Shown piece by piece: positions 1,033 through 35,473 of a DNA stretch of 40,212 nt. The notes below the pieces were generated by a model. The model had not been told where the DNA came from, ran no database searches, and saw only the letters and a program-made list of their open reading frames with translations. The position numbers and the translations under genes are program-made. This DNA is from an uncultured bacterium (GTDB taxonomy: Bacteria > Latescibacterota > Latescibacteria > Latescibacterales > Latescibacteraceae), in assembly GCA_964400815.1 (NCBI GenBank), contig CAYNWJ010000004.1, positions 1-40,212 of the forward strand. Reading direction: 5' to 3'. How positions within the stretch are numbered: position 1 is the first letter of the stretch; each line of letters starts with the position of its first letter.

Positions 1033-2934
1033 TCATGAACCGCCCCCCTCCGACCCCAAAGCCCGCTCCATGATGTCATACACGCGGTCCACCATGGTCC
1101 GGGGATTATCCAAAAGCCCCGCCTCCGCGAGCGCGTTGTCGTGTATCTGCCGGGCGCAGAGCTGGAGAAATCCCTTGTCGGCCGAACCGTCGCGGAGCTT
1201 CTTGAGGGTCACGATCAAGGGGTGGGAGGTGTTGATCTCCAGGATCTTCTCACCGGGGCCGCCGAAATCCTGTCCCGCAGCCTTCATCACCCGCTTCATG
1301 GTGGTGGTCACCGTGGAATCGGGATTGACGATCATGGCGGGACGGTCGGTGAGGCGTTTCGATTCGCGGACCTCCTTCACCGTATCGCCGATCGTCTCCT
1401 TCATCCAGGTGGTGAAGGAGGCGAGTTCAGCCCCGGAAATGTGTTCCTTCCTGTCGTCCTTCGCCTCGTCTTCCGGCGCATCCGGCAGCTCGATGTCAGC
1501 CGCGTCGGCGCTCACCAGCTTCCTGCCGTCGTATTCGCCCAGGTTCATCATCACAAAATCGTCGATCGGCTCGTGGAGATAGAGCACCTCGATGTTCCGC
1601 GCCTTGAAAGCGCCCACATAGGGCCCCTGTTCGATGGATTCGCGCGTGGGGCCGTTGAGATAATAGATGTCGCTCTGACCCTCCCGCATGCGGGCAGCAT
1701 AGTCGTCGAGGGACACCGGCGTGTCACCGTCCTCCGCGCTGGAGTGGAAGCGGAGAAGCTTCGCCAGGTCCGCACGGTTCTCGAAATCGGAGGAAATGCC
1801 CTCCTTGACGAACATTCCGAAACGGTCCCATACGGTGGCGTAGGTGTCGGGATCGTTTTTCGCCAGGTCCTCCAGGTGACGGATCACCCGCCGCGTGAGA
1901 TATTTGCCCATCTTGCGGAAGACCATGTTGTCCTGGAGCGTCTCGCGGGAGATGTTCAGGGGCAGGTCGGCCGAATCGACCACCCCGGTCACGAAGCGCA
2001 TGTATTCGGGCAGCAGCTTCTCCGAATGCTCCTGGATGAGCACCTTGCGGGAATAGAGGTTCACACCGGGCTTCATCTTCATGAAGCCGAAGGACTCCAC
2101 GTTCGTGGAGGGGACATAGAGCAGCGCGGAGAGCTGGATGGGAGCGTCCGCCGTGAGGTGCAGCCTCGAAAGCGGTTCGTCAACGGCGTTGGCGATGAAC
2201 TTGTAGAACTCGTCATACTCCTCGTCCTTCACGTCCGAAGGGGATTTCAGCCAGATGGCCTGGACGGTGTTCACCGTCTCCCCATCGACTTTGATGGGGA
2301 AGGGAACGAAATTCGAATATTTCCTGATGACCGATTCCACCGTGGCCTTCTTCTCGTATTCCCTGGCGTCCTCCTTGAGCTCCACGATCACGGAGGTCCC
2401 CCGGGGCAGGCCGTCCACTTTCTCGATTGTGTATTCGCCCATGCCGTCGCTGGACCATTCATAGCCGGACGCCTGGGGCCGGAAGGAGCGTGTGCGCACC
2501 CGTACGCGATCGCCCGCCATGAAGGCGGAATAGAACCCCACGCCGAACTTTCCTATCATGTCGGCGTCGAGATTTTCGCGGTTCTTGAGATTCTCGAGGA
2601 ACTCCCGTGTTCCCGAGCGGGCGATGGTCCCCAGGTTCTCTTCGAGTTCCTCGCGGGTCATGCCCACGCCGGTGTCGGTGATGGTGATGGTATGGGCGTC
2701 CTCGTCGGTGTCGATGCGTATTTCGAGCGGGGCGTCCTTGTCGGCATGGGAGTCCGACACCAGGGATTCGTGCCGCATTTTTTCGAGGGCATCCGAAGCG
2801 TTGGATACCAGTTCACGTATGAAAATCTCGCGGTGGGTGTAGAGCGAGTGAATGACAATATCCAGGACCTGCCGTACTTCCGCCCTGAACTTTTTCGTCT
2901 CGGGGGCGGCTGTGTTCTTGTTCTTTTCGGCCAT
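1033..2934 (-). CDS. htpG: molecular chaperone HtpG (Hsp90)
   Basis: 633 aa. The N-terminal GHKL ATPase signature is FRAEVRQVLDIVIHSLYTHREIFIRELVSNASDALEK, followed by GQFGVGFYS-like GKFGVGFYSAF. ATG at 2934 with GGAGG 8 nt upstream. Confidence 0.97.
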   Translation of the reverse strand: MAEKNKNTAAPETKKFRAEVRQVLDIVIHSLYTHREIFIRELVSNASDALEKMRHESLVSDSHADKDAPLEIRIDTDEDAHTITITDTGVGMTREELEENLGTIARSGTREFLENLKNRENLDADMIGKFGVGFYSAFMAGDRVRVRTRSFRPQASGYEWSSDGMGEYTIEKVDGLPRGTSVIVELKEDAREYEKKATVESVIRKYSNFVPFPIKVDGETVNTVQAIWLKSPSDVKDEEYDEFYKFIANAVDEPLSRLHLTADAPIQLSALLYVPSTNVESFGFMKMKPGVNLYSRKVLIQEHSEKLLPEYMRFVTGVVDSADLPLNISRETLQDNMVFRKMGKYLTRRVIRHLEDLAKNDPDTYATVWDRFGMFVKEGISSDFENRADLAKLLRFHSSAEDGDTPVSLDDYAARMREGQSDIYYLNGPTRESIEQGPYVGAFKARNIEVLYLHEPIDDFVMMNLGEYDGRKLVSADAADIELPDAPEDEAKDDRKEHISGAELASFTTWMKETIGDTVKEVRESKRLTDRPAMIVNPDSTVTTTMKRVMKAAGQDFGGPGEKILEINTSHPLIVTLKKLRDGSADKGFLQLCARQIHDNALAEAGLLDNPRTMVDRVYDIMERALGSEGGGS

Positions 2935-3007
2935 GAATCAAACCTCCGTTGCATGTATGTGGAAATTGTGACTGATTGACGGATAGTGTTGCCGTGACAT
3001 GATCGTC

Positions 3008-3029
3008 GCCGGTCGGGGAAATCCCCGGC
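3008..3029 (-). terminator. GC-rich intercistronic hairpin between dnaJ and htpG (no U-tract)
   Basis: GCCGGTCGGGGAAATCCCCGGC is an imperfect palindrome (core CGGGGAAATCCCCG at 3014-3027) about 17 nt after the dnaJ stop. It could be an attenuator or a processing site. Confidence 0.3.
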
Positions 3030-3043
3030 ATGAAGGGATCCCG

Positions 3044-4216
3044 TCATTTCCCGGCGCGGGAGTACAGATACGACCGTCCGCCGGCCGGGGGCGTGAAATT
3101 CGGTGACGAGCCCAGTTCCTCGAGCAAGCTCCGCTCATGGTCCGTGAGCCGTTTGGGGGCGGCGATCCAGATGCGGACGATCATGTCGCCCGAGCCGGTT
3201 CCGTTGAGATGCCCGATGCCCTTGCCGCGTAGCCTGAGCCTGCCGCCCGACTGGGTCCCCGCCGGAATCGTGAGACGCGCCTTTTTGCCGTTGAGAAGAG
3301 GGACGTCCACGGTGTCGCCGAGCGCAGCCTGGGATATGGATACGGGGAGATCGTGGATGACATCGTCGCTCTGACGTTCGAAGAGATCGTGCCGCTGCTC
3401 CTCGATGATCACGATGATGTCGCCGGGAGGGGCGTTCCGGACGCCGGCGTCACCCTGTCCGCGCAGGGTCAGATAGTTGCCGTCGGCGACACCCGCGGGG
3501 ACAGTGACGGACAGTGTTTCCTTCTTTCGAACGCGCCCGGTGCTCTCGCACTGTCCGCAGGGATCGCCTATGATGCGCCCTTCTCCGTTGCATACAGTAC
3601 AGGGTTCCACCGACATGAAGGTGCCGAAACGGCTCTGGCTCTGCTTCTGCACTTCCCCGCGGCCATTGCAGCTCGGGCAGACACGGTATCCCGCGCCGCC
3701 GGACGATCCCGTCCCCCCGCAGGAGGCACAACGGACGAAGTGTGAAATCCTGATCTTCTTTTTCGTTCCTTCGGCGATCTCCTCCAGGGTGAGCCTGAGG
3801 GTGATGCGAAGATCGGCGCCCTTTTTCTCCACGGGGCGCGCCCTCTGTGACGGCCGCCGTGCACGGCCTGACCGTCCACCAAAGAAATCACCGAAAATCG
3901 AGCCGCTGAACAGGTCGCTGAAAATATCGTCGAAATCCCCGGCGTGTGAGAAGTCCTGCCAAGTGAATCCTCCCTGCTCCCCGGAAAATGAGCCCTTGAG
4001 TCCCTCTTCACCGAAACGGTCGTATTTCTTGCGCTTTTCCGGGTCCGAAAGGACCTCGTAGGCCTCGGCCGCCTCCTTGAATTTCTCCTCGGCCGCCTTG
4101 TCGCCCTTGTTGCGGTCGGGATGATACTTCATGGCCAGCTTGCGGTAGGCCTTCTTCACCTCGTCCGGGGAGGCGCTTTTGTCTATGTTCAGAATGTCAT
4201 AATAATTTTTTCCCAT
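3044..4216 (-). CDS. dnaJ: molecular chaperone DnaJ (type I Hsp40)
   Basis: 390 aa. J-domain with KYHPDRN, a G/F-rich linker and four CxxCxGxG motifs ([32 protein letters not shown]). ATG at 4216 with GAAGAGG upstream. Confidence 0.97.
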
Positions 4217-4340
4217 ACCTCTTCTTCCAGCGTTTGTTTTCTTCTGTGAACAGGCTTTTGAGCCTTCAACGGGAAAACGGGAGAATCATGGCGTCTCCAC
4301 GGGACCATCGTCCGGGAGATATTTCCAGAGTCCGTTTCCG

Positions 4341-4496
4341 TCATCTCACATAGCCCGTTCCCTTGCAGAAAAGACATTTTTTCGTGGAAATGATCTTGTT
4401 CTTTCCTTTATTGAAATACCGGTATTCCGACACATATCCCCGTCCCTTGCAGGCCTGACACACGACCTGCGCCGTTCTCGACTGATAGTCAGCCAT
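4341..4496 (-). CDS. 51-aa mini zinc-finger protein with two DnaJ-type CxxCxGxG motifs
   Basis: Below the ORF-track size cut-off. My translation is MADYQSRTAQVVCQACKGRGYVSEYRYFNKGKNKIISTKKCLFCKGTGYVR*. ATG at 4496 is preceded by AGGAG with a 9-nt spacer, and the stop is TGA at 4343-4341. It lies 124 nt upstream of dnaJ on the same strand. Confidence 0.6.
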   Translation of the reverse strand: MADYQSRTAQVVCQACKGRGYVSEYRYFNKGKNKIISTKKCLFCKGTGYVR

Positions 4497-4662
4497 GGGC
4501 GTTTTCTCCTGATAAACGATAACCCCTGTGAATGTTCCATGTCATATATACCGGTAACTAATATGCAACTTTTTTATCATATATGAAAATGCAAAGTTTA
4601 TGCCAACAGAAAGAATGATGGCATCGGATTGCATATCAACGCATTACCAATCACACCACAGA

Positions 4663-6859: not shown

Positions 6860-7174
6860 ATGCCGAAAAAAATTTCCGCACTCCTCCTGGACAGCAGAGA
6901 CTCGGTTGCGACCCTTCTCTCCGACGCCGAAGCCGGGGACGGGATTGAACTCAAGGGTACCGATCGTGTGATCGACGCCTCCGAACCCATACCGTACGGT
7001 CATAAAATCGCCGTTCGGGACATCGCACCCGATGAGCCGGTGCTCAAGTACGGGCAGGTGATCGGCAGGGCGACGAAGGCGATCAGCATCGGATCGTGGG
7101 TGCATGTTCACACGATGGGAAGCACCGTGGACGAGACGTTCAAAAAAAGGATAGACTCTTGGAAAACAAAGTGA
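6860..7174 (+). CDS. SAF-domain small subunit of a split UxaA-family dehydratase/lyase (104 aa)
   Basis: Internal ATG at 6860 of track ORF 6704..7174. MPKKISALLLDSRDSVATLL...PIPYGHKIAVRDIAPDEPVLKYGQVIGRATKAISIGSWVH matches the UxaA N-terminal/SAF pattern. Its stop overlaps the next start (GTGA). Confidence 0.8.
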   Translation: MPKKISALLLDSRDSVATLLSDAEAGDGIELKGTDRVIDASEPIPYGHKIAVRDIAPDEPVLKYGQVIGRATKAISIGSWVHVHTMGSTVDETFKKRIDSWKTK

Positions 7175-8343
7175 TCGCGCGTGGATGGCTCAGACCGGAC
7201 GGTTCAAAGGGAATTCGCAATCACGTGGCGGTCGTCTACACAGTCGAATGCGCGGAACACGTGGCGCGAAAGATCGCCGAGCCTTTCGGGGACATCCAGC
7301 TGTTCGGATATGACAACTGTCATTGCAACGATTTCGTGGGACGGGTCTTCAGCTCGCTTGTCGTCAATCCGAACCTCTATGGCGTCGTGGTCGTAACCCT
7401 CGGCTGCGAAATGCTCAATGGCGCCGTGCTGGTGGATGCGGCACAAAAGGGCGGCCGTGAAGCACGGCTCGTTTCGATTCAGGCCGACGGCGGGACCACG
7501 GCAACCATCGAGAAAGGACGCGCCCATGTCCGGGAACTCCTCGAGGGACGTGAATCGGCCGAGCGATGCGATTTCTCCATCTCGGATCTCAGGATCGGCT
7601 CCAATTGCGGCGGCTCCGACGCCATGAGCGGCCTGGCCTCCAATCCGACTGTCGGCTGGCTCTATGACACGATCATCGATTTGGGAGGCGCATGCTTTTT
7701 CGACGAGATAACCGAAATGATCGGCTGCGCGGATATGGCGGCGAACCGTTCTTCACCACCCGTCGCCGACAAAATCCGTGAGGCGGTGAACCGCGCCATC
7801 GACGTGGGTGTCCGTGTGGGAGAATTCGGTATTGTGAGCGGAAACGCCGAGGGCGGCCTCTCCTCCATAGAGGAAAAATCCCTGGGGGCCTATATGAAAA
7901 GCGGGCACCGTCCGATCTCCGATGTCATCCGTGTCGGGAAACGGCCGTCGAAACCCGGGCTCTATCTCATCGATTCCATTCCCGACGACCTGACCAGGGG
8001 AGCGTCACCGATCAGCGACGCCGAGGACATGTCGAACGCGGCGGCGGCGGGCTGCCACATGCTCATTTTCACCACGGGCCGGGGAACGCCCATGGGAAGC
8101 GCACTCATGCCCGTCATCAAGCTCTGTGGATCGCCGAACACGTGCCGTGTCATGGCTGAAAACGTGGACATCGACACATCGGGTGTCATCTTCGGGGACA
8201 TCACAATCGAGGAGATGGGACATCGCCTTCTCGATGAGGTCATCGCGGTTGCGGACGGCAAATGGACGGCGGCGGAACGTCTCGGCCACATGGAGCTGCA
8301 TCTTCATTACATGCGCCAGGAACACCGGCCCTGCGATTGCTGA
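7171..8343 (+). CDS. UxaA-family dehydratase/lyase large subunit (C-terminal domain protein, 390 aa)
   Basis: GTG at 7171 overlaps the upstream TGA. (M)IARGWLRPDGSKGIRNHVAVVYTVECAEHV... is the typical start of the UxaA C-domain. The split organisation resembles SuyA/SuyB. Confidence 0.85.
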   Translation: MIARGWLRPDGSKGIRNHVAVVYTVECAEHVARKIAEPFGDIQLFGYDNCHCNDFVGRVFSSLVVNPNLYGVVVVTLGCEMLNGAVLVDAAQKGGREARLVSIQADGGTTATIEKGRAHVRELLEGRESAERCDFSISDLRIGSNCGGSDAMSGLASNPTVGWLYDTIIDLGGACFFDEITEMIGCADMAANRSSPPVADKIREAVNRAIDVGVRVGEFGIVSGNAEGGLSSIEEKSLGAYMKSGHRPISDVIRVGKRPSKPGLYLIDSIPDDLTRGASPISDAEDMSNAAAAGCHMLIFTTGRGTPMGSALMPVIKLCGSPNTCRVMAENVDIDTSGVIFGDITIEEMGHRLLDEVIAVADGKWTAAERLGHMELHLHYMRQEHRPCDC

Positions 8344-8495: not shown

Positions 8496-10952
8496 ATGAC
8501 CACTGCCGGGAAACAACACCGCGAAACGGGTGACACACAGCGCTCCCGTCTGCTTCTGACCCATGCGCTCAAGCTCATCAACGCTCCCCTTGTGGTGGAA
8601 GAACGCCTCCAGCTTCTCGCAAAAATCATCGCCGATTATCTCAAGGTGGACGATGTCGTCATTTTCCTCAAGGAGGAGAAAGAGGATGTCCTCGTCATGC
8701 GCACCTCCGTGGGCCTTGGAGCCATGGCGGTGGGAAATGTCAAGATTCCGATCGGGAAGGGTGTGACGGGTCTTGTGGCGAAGAACAAGGAATATATCGC
8801 CACCCGGAACATCAACAAGGACCCGCGCAATTTCTATTCCCTCCTTTCAGAAGATGAAAAATATCCGTCGATTCTCTCCTTTCCCATTCTTCACGGCGAT
8901 GACCTCCTGGGTGTGGTCAACATCAGGAGCAAGGAGGAGCGCGATTTCACCCCCCAGGAAGCACAGGAGCTCAACAATTTCACCGCAGGCATCGCCGGGT
9001 CCATCATAAACGCCCAGACCCACGAGCGTCTCGAATACAAATCTCGGCTTCTCGAGCTCTCCATCACCATCGCCCAGGCGGTCACCTCGACCCTCGACAT
9101 CGACGAAATACTCGAGGACGTGGCATGGGAGATCGGCAACGGTTTCAGCCTGAACGGCGTCATCATCCACCTCATGGACGAAACAGGGGAAATCAAGAAA
9201 TCGGGTTCCTACGGCCTCAAAAAGAGCTTCGTGAACAACTATCCCCTCGATGTGGCAAAAAGCTGCGTCATAACGGGCGAGCCGAAGATACGCCGGCTCG
9301 ACACGGATGAAGGAAGTCTTCAGCCGCACGCCCCCGACACCTGGAACATCTGCCTTCCCCTGATCAGCCGCAACCGCAACCTGGGTGTCATCAGCCTGTT
9401 CGGCATCGATGAAACGAGCGATGACCGCGGCGGCCTGTTCCGCTCCATCGGCGTGGACGTGCTCCTGCACATCGCGGGTCTTGCCGCCCTCGCCATTGAA
9501 AACGCCACCATACATTCCGAACTCAAGCGGCTCGCCGACGAGGAAAAGAAGAAGCTCGACGTCATCGGGCTCATGTATTCCCGTGTATCGGCCGTCTTCG
9601 ATTCCATCTCCGACGGCATCATCGGTGTGGACGAGCATGGTGTCATCCATGATTTCAACGAAGTCGCCGGTACGATGCTGGGGCTTGCGCGGGACACCAA
9701 CTGGTCGAAAAAGATCGACGACATCACCTCATACAAGCCGTCCCTCTCATCGATCATCGCCGAAGGCAAGGAATTGACCAACAGGGTGATCACCTTCCTG
9801 ACCCCGAAGGACAAATTCGCCGCTCTTGTAACCATGCGATCCTATAAGGACTCTTCGGGGGAGCGCCGTGGCAGCGTGGTTTCCTTCCGCCCCATGGAGG
9901 AAACTGTGAAGATGCTCTCACGTTTCTCGTCACAGCGGCCGAAATACACGTTCGAGGACATCATCGGCCATGACACGTCGCTTGCCGAAACAGTCAAGCT
10001 TGCGAAGATCGCCGCGCAAAGCAAGTCAAACATACTCATCGTCGGAGACAGCGGAACGGGTAAAGAACTCTTCAGCCAGTCGATTCACAACGCATCCGAC
10101 GTGGTCGACGGTCCCTTCATTCCCGTAAACTGCGCGGCGATACCCAACGACCTGATCGAGAGCGAACTGTTCGGCTACGACGAAGGGGCGTTCACCGGTG
10201 CGCGCAAGGGCGGCTATATCGGAAAATTCGAACAGGCCACCGGCGGAACCATCTTCCTCGACGAAATCGGTGACATGCCGCTGGACCTCCAGGTGAAGCT
10301 CCTCAGGGTGCTTCAGGAAAAGGTCATCCAGCGCGTCGGGTCCGAACACATCATCCCCATATCGACTCGGGTGATTGCAGCGACGAACCGTGATCTGAAA
10401 AAAGCCATCGCCGAAGGCTCGTTCCGCGAGGAACTGTATTGGCGGCTGAACGTGATCACAATCGAGATTCCACCGCTGCGTGAACGTCGTGTCGATCTGC
10501 CCGCATTCCTGGACCATTTCATCGACCGTTTCGCCCGGGCCAACGACAAGGATGTCAGGGGGATCGATCAGGAAAGTATCAGACGGCTCATCGACTATAC
10601 ATGGAGCGGCAACATCCGCGAGTTGGAAAACGCCGTGGAACACGCGGTTCTCGTCACACAATCCGAAACCATCACGTGGAACGACCTTCCCTCGAACCTG
10701 CGCGAACGGTATGAAGAGGAGCATTCCACGCGCTCGACCGGAAACGTCATCGACAATGCGAAACGAGAACGGGCCGAGTCATCCGCAAAACTCTACCGTG
10801 AAGCACTGTACCAGTGCGGTGGCGATGTTGATGCCGCGGCACACAAGCTCGGAATCAGCCGTGCGACGATGTACCGCCGCATGAAAAAGTACGGTATCAC
10901 GGCTGAAATATCAAAAATCAGGCATGATTTCAAAAATGATACAATCGGCTGA
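8496..10952 (+). CDS. sigma-54-dependent transcriptional activator (GAF-GAF-PAS-AAA+-Fis HTH)
   Basis: 818 aa. Walker A is GDSGTGKE and the sigma-54 contact loop is ESELFGYDEGAFTGA (GAFTGA). Other motifs are RELENAV and the C-terminal HTH LGISRATMYRRMKKYGI. About 500 aa of N-terminal sensor region carries GAF- and PAS-like segments. Confidence 0.92.
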   Translation: MTTAGKQHRETGDTQRSRLLLTHALKLINAPLVVEERLQLLAKIIADYLKVDDVVIFLKEEKEDVLVMRTSVGLGAMAVGNVKIPIGKGVTGLVAKNKEYIATRNINKDPRNFYSLLSEDEKYPSILSFPILHGDDLLGVVNIRSKEERDFTPQEAQELNNFTAGIAGSIINAQTHERLEYKSRLLELSITIAQAVTSTLDIDEILEDVAWEIGNGFSLNGVIIHLMDETGEIKKSGSYGLKKSFVNNYPLDVAKSCVITGEPKIRRLDTDEGSLQPHAPDTWNICLPLISRNRNLGVISLFGIDETSDDRGGLFRSIGVDVLLHIAGLAALAIENATIHSELKRLADEEKKKLDVIGLMYSRVSAVFDSISDGIIGVDEHGVIHDFNEVAGTMLGLARDTNWSKKIDDITSYKPSLSSIIAEGKELTNRVITFLTPKDKFAALVTMRSYKDSSGERRGSVVSFRPMEETVKMLSRFSSQRPKYTFEDIIGHDTSLAETVKLAKIAAQSKSNILIVGDSGTGKELFSQSIHNASDVVDGPFIPVNCAAIPNDLIESELFGYDEGAFTGARKGGYIGKFEQATGGTIFLDEIGDMPLDLQVKLLRVLQEKVIQRVGSEHIIPISTRVIAATNRDLKKAIAEGSFREELYWRLNVITIEIPPLRERRVDLPAFLDHFIDRFARANDKDVRGIDQESIRRLIDYTWSGNIRELENAVEHAVLVTQSETITWNDLPSNLRERYEEEHSTRSTGNVIDNAKRERAESSAKLYREALYQCGGDVDAAAHKLGISRATMYRRMKKYGITAEISKIRHDFKNDTIG

Positions 10953-10979
10953 ACTCCTGCAATTCAATGCTTTCCTTCA

Positions 10980-11006
10980 AGACGGACATTCCGTCTCCTT
11001 TTTTCT
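10980..11006 (+). terminator. intrinsic terminator of the sigma-54 activator gene
   Basis: AGACGG(10980-85)/CCGTCT(10991-96) stem with loop ACATT, followed by CCTTTTTTCTTTCT. Confidence 0.6.
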
Positions 11007-11131
11007 TTCTCAATATTGAGACATATACTCTTTGCATGATCGGCGCCTGGACACGGAAACGTCATAATAATTTTCTGTATATGCTTGTATTTTATTTGTT
11101 TATGGTGTTTTATCCGTGCACATATCATTTT

Positions 11132-11147
11132 TGGCATTCTTATTGCT
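11132..11147 (+). promoter_or_regulatory. sigma-54 (-24/-12) promoter
   Basis: TGGCAT-TCTTA-TTGCT. GG (11133-34) and GC (11145-46) are separated by exactly 10 nt, matching the consensus TGGCAC-N5-TTGCW. Confidence 0.6.
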
Positions 11148-11157
11148 TAATCATATA

Positions 11158-11304
11158 AATGAATTTGACAGTGCCCTCGTGGAGTGCGGGGATAACCCAA
11201 AAAAAATGATCCCATCGACTTGCGCAGGGCACTAAAGAATTTTATTGTACCCCTTTCAAATAGATGAAAACCCCGAAAAACAAATTTTTTCGGGGTTTTT
11301 TTTT
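11158..11304 (+). ncRNA. candidate sigma-54-dependent small RNA (~145 nt)
   Basis: Delimited by the -24/-12 promoter and a strong terminator. Closing helix AGTGCCCT(11170-77)/AGGGCACT(11226-33). No SD-preceded ORF. The next gene is convergent. Confidence 0.45.
11267..11304 (+). terminator. strong intrinsic terminator
   Basis: AAAACCCCGAAAAA-CAAA-TTTTTTCGGGG followed by T9 (11296-11304). The A-tract on the 5' side makes it potentially bidirectional. Confidence 0.75.
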
Positions 11305-11332
11305 ATCCGGGTATCAAGTTAAGTCAGCATTT

Positions 11333-11359
11333 ATTCATTCTCATTCGCGCCATTGAAAA
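11333..11359 (+). repeat. 27-bp direct repeat, copy 1 (inside the MITE-like element)
   Basis: ATTCATTCTCATTCGCGCCATTGAAAA, with 26/27 identical to 11529-11555. Confidence 0.9.
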
Positions 11360-11528
11360 TACCATGTATTGTATAACCCCTCCGTCACTGGCGTGACACC
11401 TCCCCTGACAGGGGAGGCCATGTTCACCAAGCGCAGGAAGCACATGGTCCCCCCTATTTCAGGGGGGATACGGCCGACAGGCCGAGGGGGGTTAAAAAAT
11501 ACTCCGTGCATCACGGCATTCAGCACCA

Positions 11529-11555
11529 ATTCATACTCATTCGCGCCATTGAAAA
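11529..11555 (+). repeat. 27-bp direct repeat, copy 2
   Basis: ATTCATACTCATTCGCGCCATTGAAAA, offset 196 nt from copy 1. Confidence 0.9.
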
Positions 11556-11654
11556 GCTAATAAAGCATGTTTTCCAGTCATTGCTTACGTAACTTGATAC
11601 CCGGATTTTTTATCCCACTTGGAACCATCCTGTTCCGCGTCAATTCGTCAGAAA

Positions 11655-12824
11655 TCACTCCTCTGCATCACGCGGCGGCCTGTTCTTCCAATATGAGGCG
11701 AGAATCGCACCGGTCATGTTGTGCCACGAAGAATAGATCACGCCGGGAGCGGCCGCCAGTTCGCTTTTGAGGACATCGAGGGCCAGCCCCGCGGCCATGC
11801 CGCTGTTCTGGAGTCCCACCTCGATTGAAATGGTCCTGCACTCCCGCTCTCCCAGCCGAAAGAGCCGTGCGCCCCAATAGCCGAGCATGAGCCCGATGAA
11901 ATTGTGGGCTATCACCGAGAGAATGACGCTCGTGGCAATCGATGAGACGAGAAGCTGGTCCCGTGCGTTCGCGGTGAGAAGGGCGCACGCGAAGGCGACC
12001 GCAAACATCGCCACGCCGGGAAGCAGACGCATGATCCATTCCGAGATGCTCTTGAAGACATGGTGAATCCCGCTCATATACGACAGGAACCAGTTGAAGG
12101 CGAGTCCTCCCCCCACCGGAATGATGACCATTTTGAAGATCGAGATCATCATGTTCATGAAATCGATCTCGATATAGGCTCCGGCGAGCCATTTCGTCAT
12201 GGCCGGCGTCATCAGTGGAGCGAGAAGAGTCGAGCATGCGGTCATGGTGACCGACAACGCCAGATTTCCATTGGCGAGGAATGCGATGACATTCGATGCC
12301 ACTCCCCCGGGGCTCGATCCGGTCAGAACGATACCGGCCGCGATCTCAGAATTGTCGGTGAAGGTCATGGCAACCGCCTTGCCGACAAAGGGCATGACAG
12401 TGAACTGGAGCATGATGCCGATGAGAACCGCATGAGGCATGGTGGCGACACGCTTGAAATCCTTGAGGCTCAAGGTGGTGCCCATACCGAACATGACAAA
12501 GCGAATGAGGGGGATGATGAGGACGCTGAGCTTGAAACCATTCCAGGTCCGGAAATAATCCGGATAGAACATGGGCGCCGTAACGAACGCGATCATCCAG
12601 AGGGTGAAACCGGTAACCCTGAGAAGGGTGTGTCTTCGTACGAAAATCGCGAGAAAGACCGGTATGGCGATGGCGAAGGGCCCGACGAGCGAATACCGGC
12701 CCGCGGCCAGAAACACCACCATCATGAACAGGGCGAACCCCGCAAGCGGCAGGAAAATGTCGGTGGGATGCTTTTTCAAAGAATGGATGAGCGGTGATTC
12801 CGGGGGACGGTTCCCTTGTTTCAT
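11655..12824 (-). CDS. bile acid:sodium symporter (BASS) family transporter
   Basis: The ATG at 12824 is preceded by GGGAGA with a 7-nt spacer, whereas the track start at 12839 is TTG. Polytopic membrane protein with a BASS-like GLQNSGMAAGLA segment. Confidence 0.88.
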   Translation of the reverse strand: MKQGNRPPESPLIHSLKKHPTDIFLPLAGFALFMMVVFLAAGRYSLVGPFAIAIPVFLAIFVRRHTLLRVTGFTLWMIAFVTAPMFYPDYFRTWNGFKLSVLIIPLIRFVMFGMGTTLSLKDFKRVATMPHAVLIGIMLQFTVMPFVGKAVAMTFTDNSEIAAGIVLTGSSPGGVASNVIAFLANGNLALSVTMTACSTLLAPLMTPAMTKWLAGAYIEIDFMNMMISIFKMVIIPVGGGLAFNWFLSYMSGIHHVFKSISEWIMRLLPGVAMFAVAFACALLTANARDQLLVSSIATSVILSVIAHNFIGLMLGYWGARLFRLGERECRTISIEVGLQNSGMAAGLALDVLKSELAAAPGVIYSSWHNMTGAILASYWKNRPPRDAEE

Positions 12825-33203: not shown

Positions 33204-33279
33204 GGGCCCTTAGCTCAGTGGTTAGAGCCACCGGCTCATAACCGGTTGGTCCAAGGTTCAAGTCCTTGAGGGCCCACCA
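33204..33279 (+). tRNA. tRNA with CAT anticodon, most likely tRNA-Ile2 (lysidine-dependent)
   Basis: I folded the cloverleaf by hand. Acceptor GGGCCCT/AGGGCCC, anticodon loop CTCATAA (CAT at 33237-39), T-loop TTCAAGT and an encoded CCA. It is very close to E. coli ileX (GGCCCCTTAGCTCAGTGGTTAGAGC...TTGGTC...GGTTCAAGTCC), including the C4:G69 and C5:G68 pairs. Confidence 0.9.
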
Positions 33280-33354: not shown

Positions 33355-33431
33355 GGGCGATTAGCTCAGCTGGTTAGAGTGCGGCGCTCACATCGCCGAG
33401 GTCACTGGTTCGACTCCAGTATCGCCCACCA
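33355..33431 (+). tRNA. tRNA-Val (CAC)
   Basis: Acceptor GGGCGAT/ATCGCCC, anticodon stem CGGCG/CGCCG, loop CTCACAT (CAC at 33389-91), T-loop TTCGACT and an encoded CCA. Confidence 0.93.
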
Positions 33432-34713: not shown

Positions 34714-34750
34714 TTTCACGCATCAAGATACACTTCCATGGAGGATGTTT

Positions 34751-35473
34751 ATGAAAGAGACGATGATGAAGCTTCTCCGGGCCCAGGAAATCGACCTGGA
34801 GATCGATTCGCTCGAAAAATCCAGGAAGGATTACCCCAAACAGATCGAGACGCTGAAAAACGAACTCGGCGAAATCGAAGCACGCCTTGGTGAAATCGAA
34901 GACACGATCCTCGATAACAAGAAGAAACGCATGATGATCGAGGAGGAGATCGCCGCCGAGCAGGAGACACTGAAGAAAAAGGAAAAGCGGCTCCTCGAAA
35001 CCAAGACCAACAAGGAATATACCGCCGTTCAACACGAAATCGAGGCCGCCAGGGAAAAAATCGACAACCTCGAAACCGAAGACCTGGAATTCATGACCGA
35101 GATCGACGAGCTCGAACCGAAAAAGGAAGAGCTCGAGAAGGAACTGGCGGAAAAGAGGGAACACAATACCGCGGAGATCGAAGAAATCACCGAAAAGTTC
35201 AATTCGATAGAATCAGACATTGCCACACTCGACCGTCAGCGCAAGGAGCAGATGAAAGACGTTACGGGCCGTCCGTTGAGCGTCTATGACCGGCTGAGAA
35301 AAGGCAAGAGCGGCATAGCCATATCGACCGTGGACCACCGTAAGCATTCATGCCGGGGCTGTTTCAAACAGCTGCCGCCCCAGAAGGTCCTCGAGGTACG
35401 GCGCGGCGAAAAGCTCATTTTCTGTGAGTCGTGCGGCAGACTGCTCGTGTGGGATGATCGCGAGCAGGATTGA
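34751..35473 (+). CDS. DUF164/COG1579 coiled-coil protein with C-terminal C4 zinc ribbon
   Basis: The ATG at 34751 lies 6 nt after GGAGG; the track ATG at 34745 abuts the SD. Long coiled coil, then CRGC...CESC. This is the conserved partner downstream of Nif3. Confidence 0.85.
   Translation: MKETMMKLLRAQEIDLEIDSLEKSRKDYPKQIETLKNELGEIEARLGEIEDTILDNKKKRMMIEEEIAAEQETLKKKEKRLLETKTNKEYTAVQHEIEAAREKIDNLETEDLEFMTEIDELEPKKEELEKELAEKREHNTAEIEEITEKFNSIESDIATLDRQRKEQMKDVTGRPLSVYDRLRKGKSGIAISTVDHRKHSCRGCFKQLPPQKVLEVRRGEKLIFCESCGRLLVWDDREQD

Follow-up and report, generated by a model that had tools for sequence, protein, structure and literature searches.

A conserved candidate sigma-54-dependent small RNA gene beside a GAF-GAF-PAS activator gene in Latescibacterota

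Does the intergenic DNA behind a sigma-54 activator gene encode a small RNA (sRNA) that belongs to the same regulatory unit? The question is raised by a stretch of 40,212 nucleotides (nt) from an uncultured bacterium of the Latescibacteraceae (Latescibacterota, also called WS3; GenBank assembly GCA_964400815.1, contig CAYNWJ010000004.1, positions 1 to 40,212), called the window in the following and having a GC content of about 57%. A first-pass annotation had proposed a sigma-54-dependent sRNA immediately downstream of the gene for an activator with two GAF domains and a PAS domain. The observation is confirmed, and the interpretation is supported by a comparison with related loci. We consider it probable that 11158-11304 (+) is a stand-alone gene for a non-coding RNA of ~147 nt. 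The RNA would be transcribed with sigma-54, form a conserved two-part module with the adjoining GAF-GAF-PAS activator and act in trans by base pairing.

The putative transcription unit begins with a -24/-12 promoter, TGGCAT-TCTTA-TTGCT, at 11132-11147 (+), 179 nt past the activator stop codon. Its GG and GC are separated by 10 nt, the geometry that the first-pass annotation had pointed out, and the other features described there were found in the sequence as well. The exact pattern TGGCAY-N5-TTGCW has two matches in the 40-kb window, both intergenic, with ~0.02 expected from base counting. With one mismatch allowed, the window holds four matches versus 1.7 expected. The promoter geometry places the predicted RNA start at 11157-11159, and the RNA would end in the T run at 11296-11304. 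The fold of 11158-11304 has a free energy of -48.2 kcal/mol, with a z-score of -4.65 against dinucleotide shuffles.

The predicted RNA starts with a 64-nt stem-loop, SL1 (11170-11233, +), composed of an outer stem, an inner helix and an A-rich apical loop. The 8-bp closing helix seen earlier, AGTGCCCT (11170-11177) paired with AGGGCACT (11226-11233), closes this hairpin. The inner helix pairs CGGGGAU (11187-11193) with AUCCCAUCG (11209-11217); its general form is CGGGGAU ... AUCCC(AU)CG. A linker of ~32 unpaired nt follows. It contains the C/U-rich tract CCCCUUUC (11250-11257, +), a candidate seed that is single-stranded in both the minimum-free-energy and the centroid structures. The motif AUAGAU (11260-11265, +) stands directly before the intrinsic terminator (11266-11304, +). 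The latter has a 15-pair stem (11266-11300), a 5-nt loop and nine Ts up to 11304, and by its sequence it is a terminator on both strands. Hfq-type base-pairing RNAs have the same layout of a structured 5' domain, an unpaired seed and a U-tailed, Rho-independent terminator.

The comparison comprised 12 distinct orthologous activator loci besides the window, with 10-12 kb of sequence examined per locus. Eleven of them (L081 and L083-L092) are contigs of other metagenomes or metagenome-assembled genomes and were found by ortholog look-up; L082 is an identical copy of L081. One further complete locus, L093, turned up when metagenome contigs were scanned with aligned sequences of the lineage-specific N-terminal half of the activator. 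An ordered set of elements lies 3' of the activator stop codon in 10 of these 12 loci and in the window, that is, in 11 of 13 loci: a palindrome, an AT-rich spacer of ~110 nt, TGGCAY-N5-T[TA]GC, a hairpin, a linker and a terminator. The RNA-bearing set consists of the window, L081, L083-L087, L089-L091 and L093, and the activators of the ten relatives in this set are 56-81% identical to the window protein. The first-pass annotation had made its proposal depend on such conservation beside the activator, and the elements are kept even in loci without the symporter or the dehydratase gene that flank the unit in the window.

Within the RNA-bearing set, the details are constant. TGGCA and T[TA]GC are invariant and identically spaced in all 11 loci. 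All 11 sequences fold into a long 5' hairpin, followed by an unpaired linker and by a terminator that is at the equivalent place in every locus. The hairpin comprises 60-75 nt and lies ~25 nt past the promoter, and the unpaired linker has 30-50 nt. All 11 RNAs have AUAGA in their 3' part, and 10 of them have the C/U-rich tract in the linker (e.g., CCCCCCUCUUUC in L087). No open reading frame (ORF) is conserved, and 5 of the 11 RNAs have no ORF of at least 12 codons on either strand; the first-pass annotation had noted ~145 nt that lack an ORF preceded by a Shine-Dalgarno sequence. The window and L081 are the closest pair, with activators that are 81% identical. Between them, the identity is 0.76 for the palindrome, 0.75 for the promoter and 0.73 for SL1; for the spacer (0.50) and both flanks it is 0.46-0.51, the value of shuffled sequence. 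Divergence of the intergenic DNA has therefore reached saturation outside these elements.

The pairing of SL1 is also conserved. The first-pass annotation had suggested a search for covariation in homologous intergenic regions, and the outer stem of SL1 has compensatory changes. RNAalifold recovered this stem, with compensatory changes at 8-9 positions. A covariance model, R1, was built on nine SL1 sequences with L093 held out. In the R1-based alignment of ten sequences, 9 of the 16 SL1 pairs have compensatory changes on both sides: 8 of the 10 outer-stem pairs and 1 of the 6 pairs of the inner helix, which is conserved mainly in sequence. Standard pairs occupy 86.8% of the SL1 cells, versus 43-50% when the partners are slid by 1-3 columns, and the covariation score was reached by none of 500 shuffles. 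R1 scores the window SL1 with 66.4 bits and finds the held-out L093 with 46.3 bits (E about 1e-10). The L093 match lies 200 nt past the activator stop codon, with palindrome, promoter, linker motifs and terminator in place. About 0.8 Mb of sequence surrounding paralogous sigma-54 activators served as the negative control; R1 had no match above 18 bits there, and it matched nothing elsewhere in the window.

The palindrome, absent from the first-pass annotation, adds a candidate binding site to the unit. It is TTCTCAATATTGAGAC at 11007-11022 in the window and has the consensus GTCTCA-N4-6-TGAGAC. An exact TCTCA-N4-TGAGA occurs once in the window, at 11008. The 11-locus alignment of the 180 nt that precede the RNA has only two conserved blocks, the palindrome and the -24/-12 element. 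The AT-rich spacer between them (11023-11131; 34% GC) has no conserved column. The enhancer of a sigma-54 promoter is expected some 80-150 bp away from it. In the 11 loci, the palindrome centre and the -24 GG are 105.5-129 nt apart; the palindrome is a candidate enhancer, located where one is expected for a sigma-54 activator. The distances cluster near 108, 119 and 129 nt, in steps of about one helical turn. Such steps are what a face-of-helix constraint on an enhancer would give; with 11 loci, they are suggestive and not proof.

The activator gene (8496-10952, +) encodes an 818-amino acid (aa) sigma-54 enhancer-binding protein with the Pfam domains GAF-GAF-PAS, Sigma54_activat (AAA+), AAA_lid and HTH_8. 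Walker A is located at residue 517, GAFTGA at 564 and Walker B at 586, and GAFTGA is present in 38 of 38 activator orthologs. By this motif content, with GAFTGA and both Walker motifs, the predicted protein is a competent sigma-54 activator. Its Pfam domains include no receiver domain, so that it does not qualify as a two-component response regulator, and it reached none of the NCBIfam equivalog cut-offs, including those for LuxO, GlrR and NtrC. The protein looks like a one-component sensor that would act via its GAF and PAS domains. The gene has its own intrinsic terminator (10980-11006, +), a 7-bp stem at 10980-10996 followed by CCTTTTTTCT.

Orthologs of the activator with 61-81% identity, equal length and the same domain order carry the source names Latescibacterota or Latescibacteria. 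A look-up of the exact window protein sequence gave no existing record. A scan of reference genomes with the full activator returned no orthologs and instead paralogous sigma-54 activators of at most 47% identity, which matched through generic AAA+ patterns; their loci are the negative controls of R1. The metagenome contigs were also scanned with a DNA pattern for promoter plus hairpin. There were no matches, though the pattern fits five known loci; the scanned collection evidently contains few of these genomes.

The arrangement of genes around the RNA separates it from its neighbours. The common, though not fixed, gene order is purA, SAF, GD_AH dehydratase, activator, RNA, SBF, AXE1 hydrolase and leuS. 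In the window, the SBF/BASS transporter gene (11655-12824) is convergent with the RNA, in agreement with the earlier view that, next to a convergent BASS symporter gene, promoter and terminator define a stand-alone transcript. In all 11 loci, the next gene past the RNA has the opposite orientation. A cis-regulatory leader or riboswitch does not fit this arrangement, in which the terminator is followed in every locus by an opposite-strand gene. Other promoters of the type TGGCAY-N5-T[TA]GC were found before no gene in the 10-12 kb of any locus. The earlier statement that no -24/-12 promoter precedes the dehydratase, symporter and hydrolase genes thus agrees with the pattern scans. The neighbours change between loci. 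In L087 and L091, a gene for an unrelated protein of 415-425 aa stands upstream in place of the dehydratase; in L089, two other genes lie between dehydratase and activator; and in L089 and L091, there is no SBF gene downstream. The RNA stays with the activator despite these changes, and the conserved pair is therefore activator plus RNA. A stand-alone unit with its own promoter and terminator, no conserved ORF and linkage to the activator in 11 of 13 loci is what characterises an activator-linked sRNA.

The DNA between the RNA and the SBF gene has features of its own. In compact loci, the RNA terminator doubles as that of the convergent SBF gene, whose stop codon abuts the hairpin in L086 (7771-7806) and is 20-40 nt away from it in L084 and L085. 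In the window, an element of ~302 nt (11305-11606) is located in the T tract directly past the RNA terminator and is T-rich on both sides. It has 25-nt terminal inverted repeats (11305-11329 and 11582-11606; 92% complementary), a 36-nt direct repeat (11324-11359 and 11520-11555) and several GC-rich hairpins, and it is present in one copy in the window. It looks like an insertion of the miniature inverted-repeat transposable element type. The spacer between activator and SBF gene is therefore 703 nt in the window versus 343-392 nt in L084-L086.

From this arrangement, we infer transcription of the RNA, its dependence on the activator, a base-pairing mode and the presence of targets. The proposed mechanism would start with a signal, probably a small molecule, sensed by the GAF and PAS domains. 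The activator would bind GTCTCA-N4-6-TGAGAC about 105-130 bp upstream of the promoter. Looping of the AT-rich spacer would let it meet the sigma-54 holoenzyme at TGGCAT-N5-TTGC (11132-11147), where the closed complex would be opened in an ATP-dependent reaction. Transcription from near 11158 to the terminator at 11266-11304 would yield the 147-nt RNA. In it, the long 5' hairpin and the U-tailed terminator hairpin would flank the unpaired linker with CCCCUUUC and AUAGAU. In trans, the C/U-rich linker would pair with purine-rich ribosome-binding regions of mRNAs encoded elsewhere.

Trans base pairing through the C/U-rich tract is probably how the RNA acts, and it is the best-supported guess for three reasons. 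The tract is the most widely kept feature of the RNA and survives in L085, which has no SL1. It is complementary to purine-rich ribosome-binding sequences; of the 4-mers that precede the called starts in these loci, AGGA, AAGG, GGAG and GAGG are the most frequent. Finally, the RNA as a whole is laid out like classical base-pairing sRNAs.

Several observations weigh against a conserved, sigma-54-dependent base-pairing RNA. L088 and L092, with activators of 63-64% identity, have no such promoter, hairpin, RNA or terminator in the 10-12 kb examined; in this sub-lineage, the RNA was either lost or is elsewhere in the genome. L085 has the promoter, the motifs and the terminator, but its 5' hairpin is unrelated and is not matched by R1. 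The SL1 of L089 is a weak R1 match (32 bits). Not every member, therefore, requires this hairpin sequence. The alignment of SL1 and the RNA comprises 10-11 sequences of one clade, and part of the SL1 covariation may derive from few ancestral changes. Wobble pairs, with seven G.U versus four A.C, do not decide the strand, and the RNA strand was assigned from the promoter and the T tract. No rpoN gene was found among the window ORFs scanned, a scan that for ORFs of at least 150 aa reached up to ~36.4 kb; the presence of sigma-54 in the organism is suggested by the GAFTGA activator. As to targets, linker duplex energies against the translation-start regions of purA, SAF, GD_AH, activator, SBF, AXE1, leuS and pyrF gave no consistent favourite. 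These energies were compared without a background distribution and for 10-12 kb per genome.

The exceptional loci deserve a description. In L088 (7443-7540) and L092 (7443-7570), an ABC ATPase gene follows 100-130 nt past the activator, and the same dehydratase is encoded upstream. L085 retains AUAGAU motifs and the C/U-rich tract CCCUCUCC at 7619-7804. It was rejected as a member of the SL1 hairpin family, with which it has position, promoter, motifs and terminator in common. Its 5' domain seems to have been replaced inside an otherwise conserved RNA gene.

Through the inner helix CGGGGAUAA ... GAUCCCAUCG and the A-rich loop of SL1, a real sigma-54-dependent RNA may bind or sequester a protein instead of pairing with mRNAs, as CrcZ does for Hfq/Crc and RsmZ for CsrA. 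Hfq and Crc recognise A-rich single-stranded motifs on CrcZ. All typical members have an A-rich apical loop, and the inner part of SL1 is kept in sequence, its single compensated pair out of six contrasting with the 8 of 10 in the outer stem. However, each RNA offers one site, whereas sequestering RNAs usually have several repeats, and no gene for an RNA-binding protein is linked to the locus. The linker is also the more universal part, since L085 lacks the SL1 hairpin and yet has the linker motifs. We regard protein binding as unlikely. Nor is a peptide product convincing. The window RNA does contain a 16-codon ATG ORF (11159-11209; MNLTVPSWSAGITQKK) and an 18-codon GTG ORF, but neither is conserved, the peptides present in other loci are mutually unrelated, and no Shine-Dalgarno-like sequence precedes the window ORF. 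The RNAs of five loci, as said above, are devoid of ORFs of this size. The chance that the transcript encodes a very small protein is next to negligible, and this reading was rejected.

The remaining alternatives assign the function to the DNA or to the act of transcription. The conserved blocks may be sites at the DNA level, that is, autoregulatory operators or a silent sigma-54 site, with the hairpin as a protein-bound inverted repeat and no stable RNA. Both strands fold about equally well, and the wobble pairs do not separate them. A study on Escherichia coli describes many conserved sigma-54 binding sites without a detectable associated transcript (PMC4591121). A protein-bound repeat would, however, keep its sequence and not swap G-C for A-U at 8 of 10 outer-stem positions, and promoter, hairpin, unpaired linker and terminator with U tail, all conserved in 11 loci, have the look of a transcription unit. 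This makes sites without an RNA very unlikely. It is highly improbable that the promoter acts locally on the convergent SBF gene, by transcription collision or by terminator read-through that yields antisense RNA, with the RNA product being secondary. Nine of the 11 loci have a convergent SBF gene close by, with its stop codon at the terminator in L086 and 20-40 nt off in L084 and L085, and the terminator sequence reads as one in both directions. Yet L089 and L091 retain promoter, RNA and terminator without an SBF gene, and every locus has a strong terminator ahead of the SBF 3' end. In the window, the 302-nt insertion separates terminator and SBF gene while the RNA is intact. Selection on SL1 pairing is not explained by interference alone.

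A trans-acting, base-pairing sRNA beside its activator has parallels in other phyla. In Myxococcus xanthus, the gene of the sRNA Pxr is located directly 3' of the sigma-54 activator gene nla19 and has its own predicted sigma-54 promoter and enhancer site; this position is kept across genera while other neighbours change, and Pxr is a multi-stem-loop RNA (PMC5568312). The window locus shares the intergenic position 3' of the activator gene, an own predicted promoter and candidate enhancer, the length of ~100-150 nt and the multi-stem-loop structure. It differs in the number of stem-loops, three in Pxr versus two and a long unpaired linker here, and in its phylum, Latescibacterota instead of Myxococcota. 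Nla19 is described as a response regulator, whereas the window activator has GAF-GAF-PAS and no receiver. The window RNA matches no Rfam model.

In Pseudomonas, crcZ adjoins cbrB. CrcZ and CrcY are directly activated by CbrB bound upstream of the promoter, and the CbrB sites consist of three non-palindromic subsites (PMC6296734). In the proposed reading, an sRNA under a sigma-54 enhancer-binding protein that acts from an upstream site would be common to both systems. CrcZ differs by its length of about 400 nt and by sequestering Hfq/Crc with repeated A-rich motifs, and CbrB belongs to a two-component system and uses three subsites, whereas a single palindrome is present here.

Qrr with LuxO in Vibrio and GlmY with GlrR in Enterobacteria are further sRNAs that depend on sigma-54 and an activator and constitute the activator's main output; Qrr1 and glmY adjoin the regulator genes. 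The likeness is the placement beside the regulator gene of an sRNA that depends on sigma-54, in the window putatively. LuxO and GlrR are phosphorylated response regulators, unlike the window activator, and the window RNA has no match to an Rfam sRNA family. Qrr is divergent from luxO, whereas the window RNA is co-directional with and downstream of the activator. Two papers give context on LuxO and sRNAs (PMC4878744, PMC11407668). The predicted RNA is a new family within a known kind of regulatory module, represented by Pxr/Nla19, CrcZ/CbrB and Qrr1/LuxO, and in a new phylum. A resemblance to RsaE/RoxS of Firmicutes, which presumably have an unpaired C-rich tract between hairpins that is complementary to ribosome-binding sites, is taken as a lead only. 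There is no homology, and the window RNA has one C/U-rich tract while RsaE/RoxS have several C-rich loops.

At the gathering thresholds, Rfam 15, with its sRNA, leader and riboswitch models, yielded two matches in the window, both tRNA genes (33204-33276 and 33355-33428, +), and none in the ten homologous loci. Sub-threshold matches over 10900-11700 (trpB motif, rli38, His leader and VrrA) were dismissed, as all of them are due to the terminator hairpin.

Other parts of the window also touch on sigma-54. The second exact sigma-54-type site, TGGCATAAACTTTGCA, is located on the reverse strand at 4590-4605, ~90 nt upstream of an ORF of ~58 codons with CxxC pairs. On the same strand, dnaJ (3044-4216) and htpG (1033-2934) follow 3' of this ORF; the genes together lie within 1033-4500 (-). 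The site may head a sigma-54-controlled chaperone operon. No palindrome similar to GTCTCA...TGAGAC was found upstream of it, and it is therefore probably served by a different activator. None of the other loci, in which purA has different neighbours, shows this dnaJ/htpG arrangement with a sigma-54 site. At 34745-35473 (+), a protein with a CT398-like coiled-coil hairpin and a C4 zinc ribbon (Pfam CT398_CC and Zn_ribbon_9) is encoded. Members of this family, such as CT398 of Chlamydia and HP0958 of Helicobacter, presumably bind sigma-54.

Upstream of the activator, two overlapping genes encode a split dehydratase of the UxaA/GarD family: a 104-aa protein with a SAF domain (6860-7174, +) and a 394-aa GD_AH protein (7159-8343, +). 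Both proteins score far below the galactarate dehydratase cut-off. As the usual upstream neighbour, the split dehydratase may hint at the signal sensed by the activator.

A bolder extension, tentative and rather doubtful, combines a one-component ligand-sensing activator with a dedicated sRNA as its only nearby promoter target, conserved across a Latescibacterota clade. In such an RNA, the inner helix and the A-rich loop would bind a protein or ligand, and the anti-Shine-Dalgarno-like seed would be the second part. To our knowledge, the known sigma-54-dependent sRNAs are all under two-component systems. If the extension is true, the sensing of a small molecule would be linked directly to post-transcriptional control, in a way undescribed for the known sigma-54-dependent sRNAs.

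We know of no cultured, genetically tractable representative of the Latescibacterota, and a literature search found no paper naming both Latescibacter* and sigma-54. The RNA, its promoter class, the candidate enhancer and the activator are thus a first lead in an unstudied phylum. The RNA family model could enter RNA family databases and improve the annotation of Latescibacterota genomes. Activator, palindrome, promoter and RNA are a compact set that could be rebuilt in a heterologous host to learn the signal of the GAF and PAS domains. The locus is a clean, testable candidate, though no surprise to specialists for sigma-54 or small RNAs. If the proposed reading holds, the module of an activator plus an adjacent sRNA, described for Proteobacteria and Myxococcota, would reach into a distant phylum and include a one-component activator.

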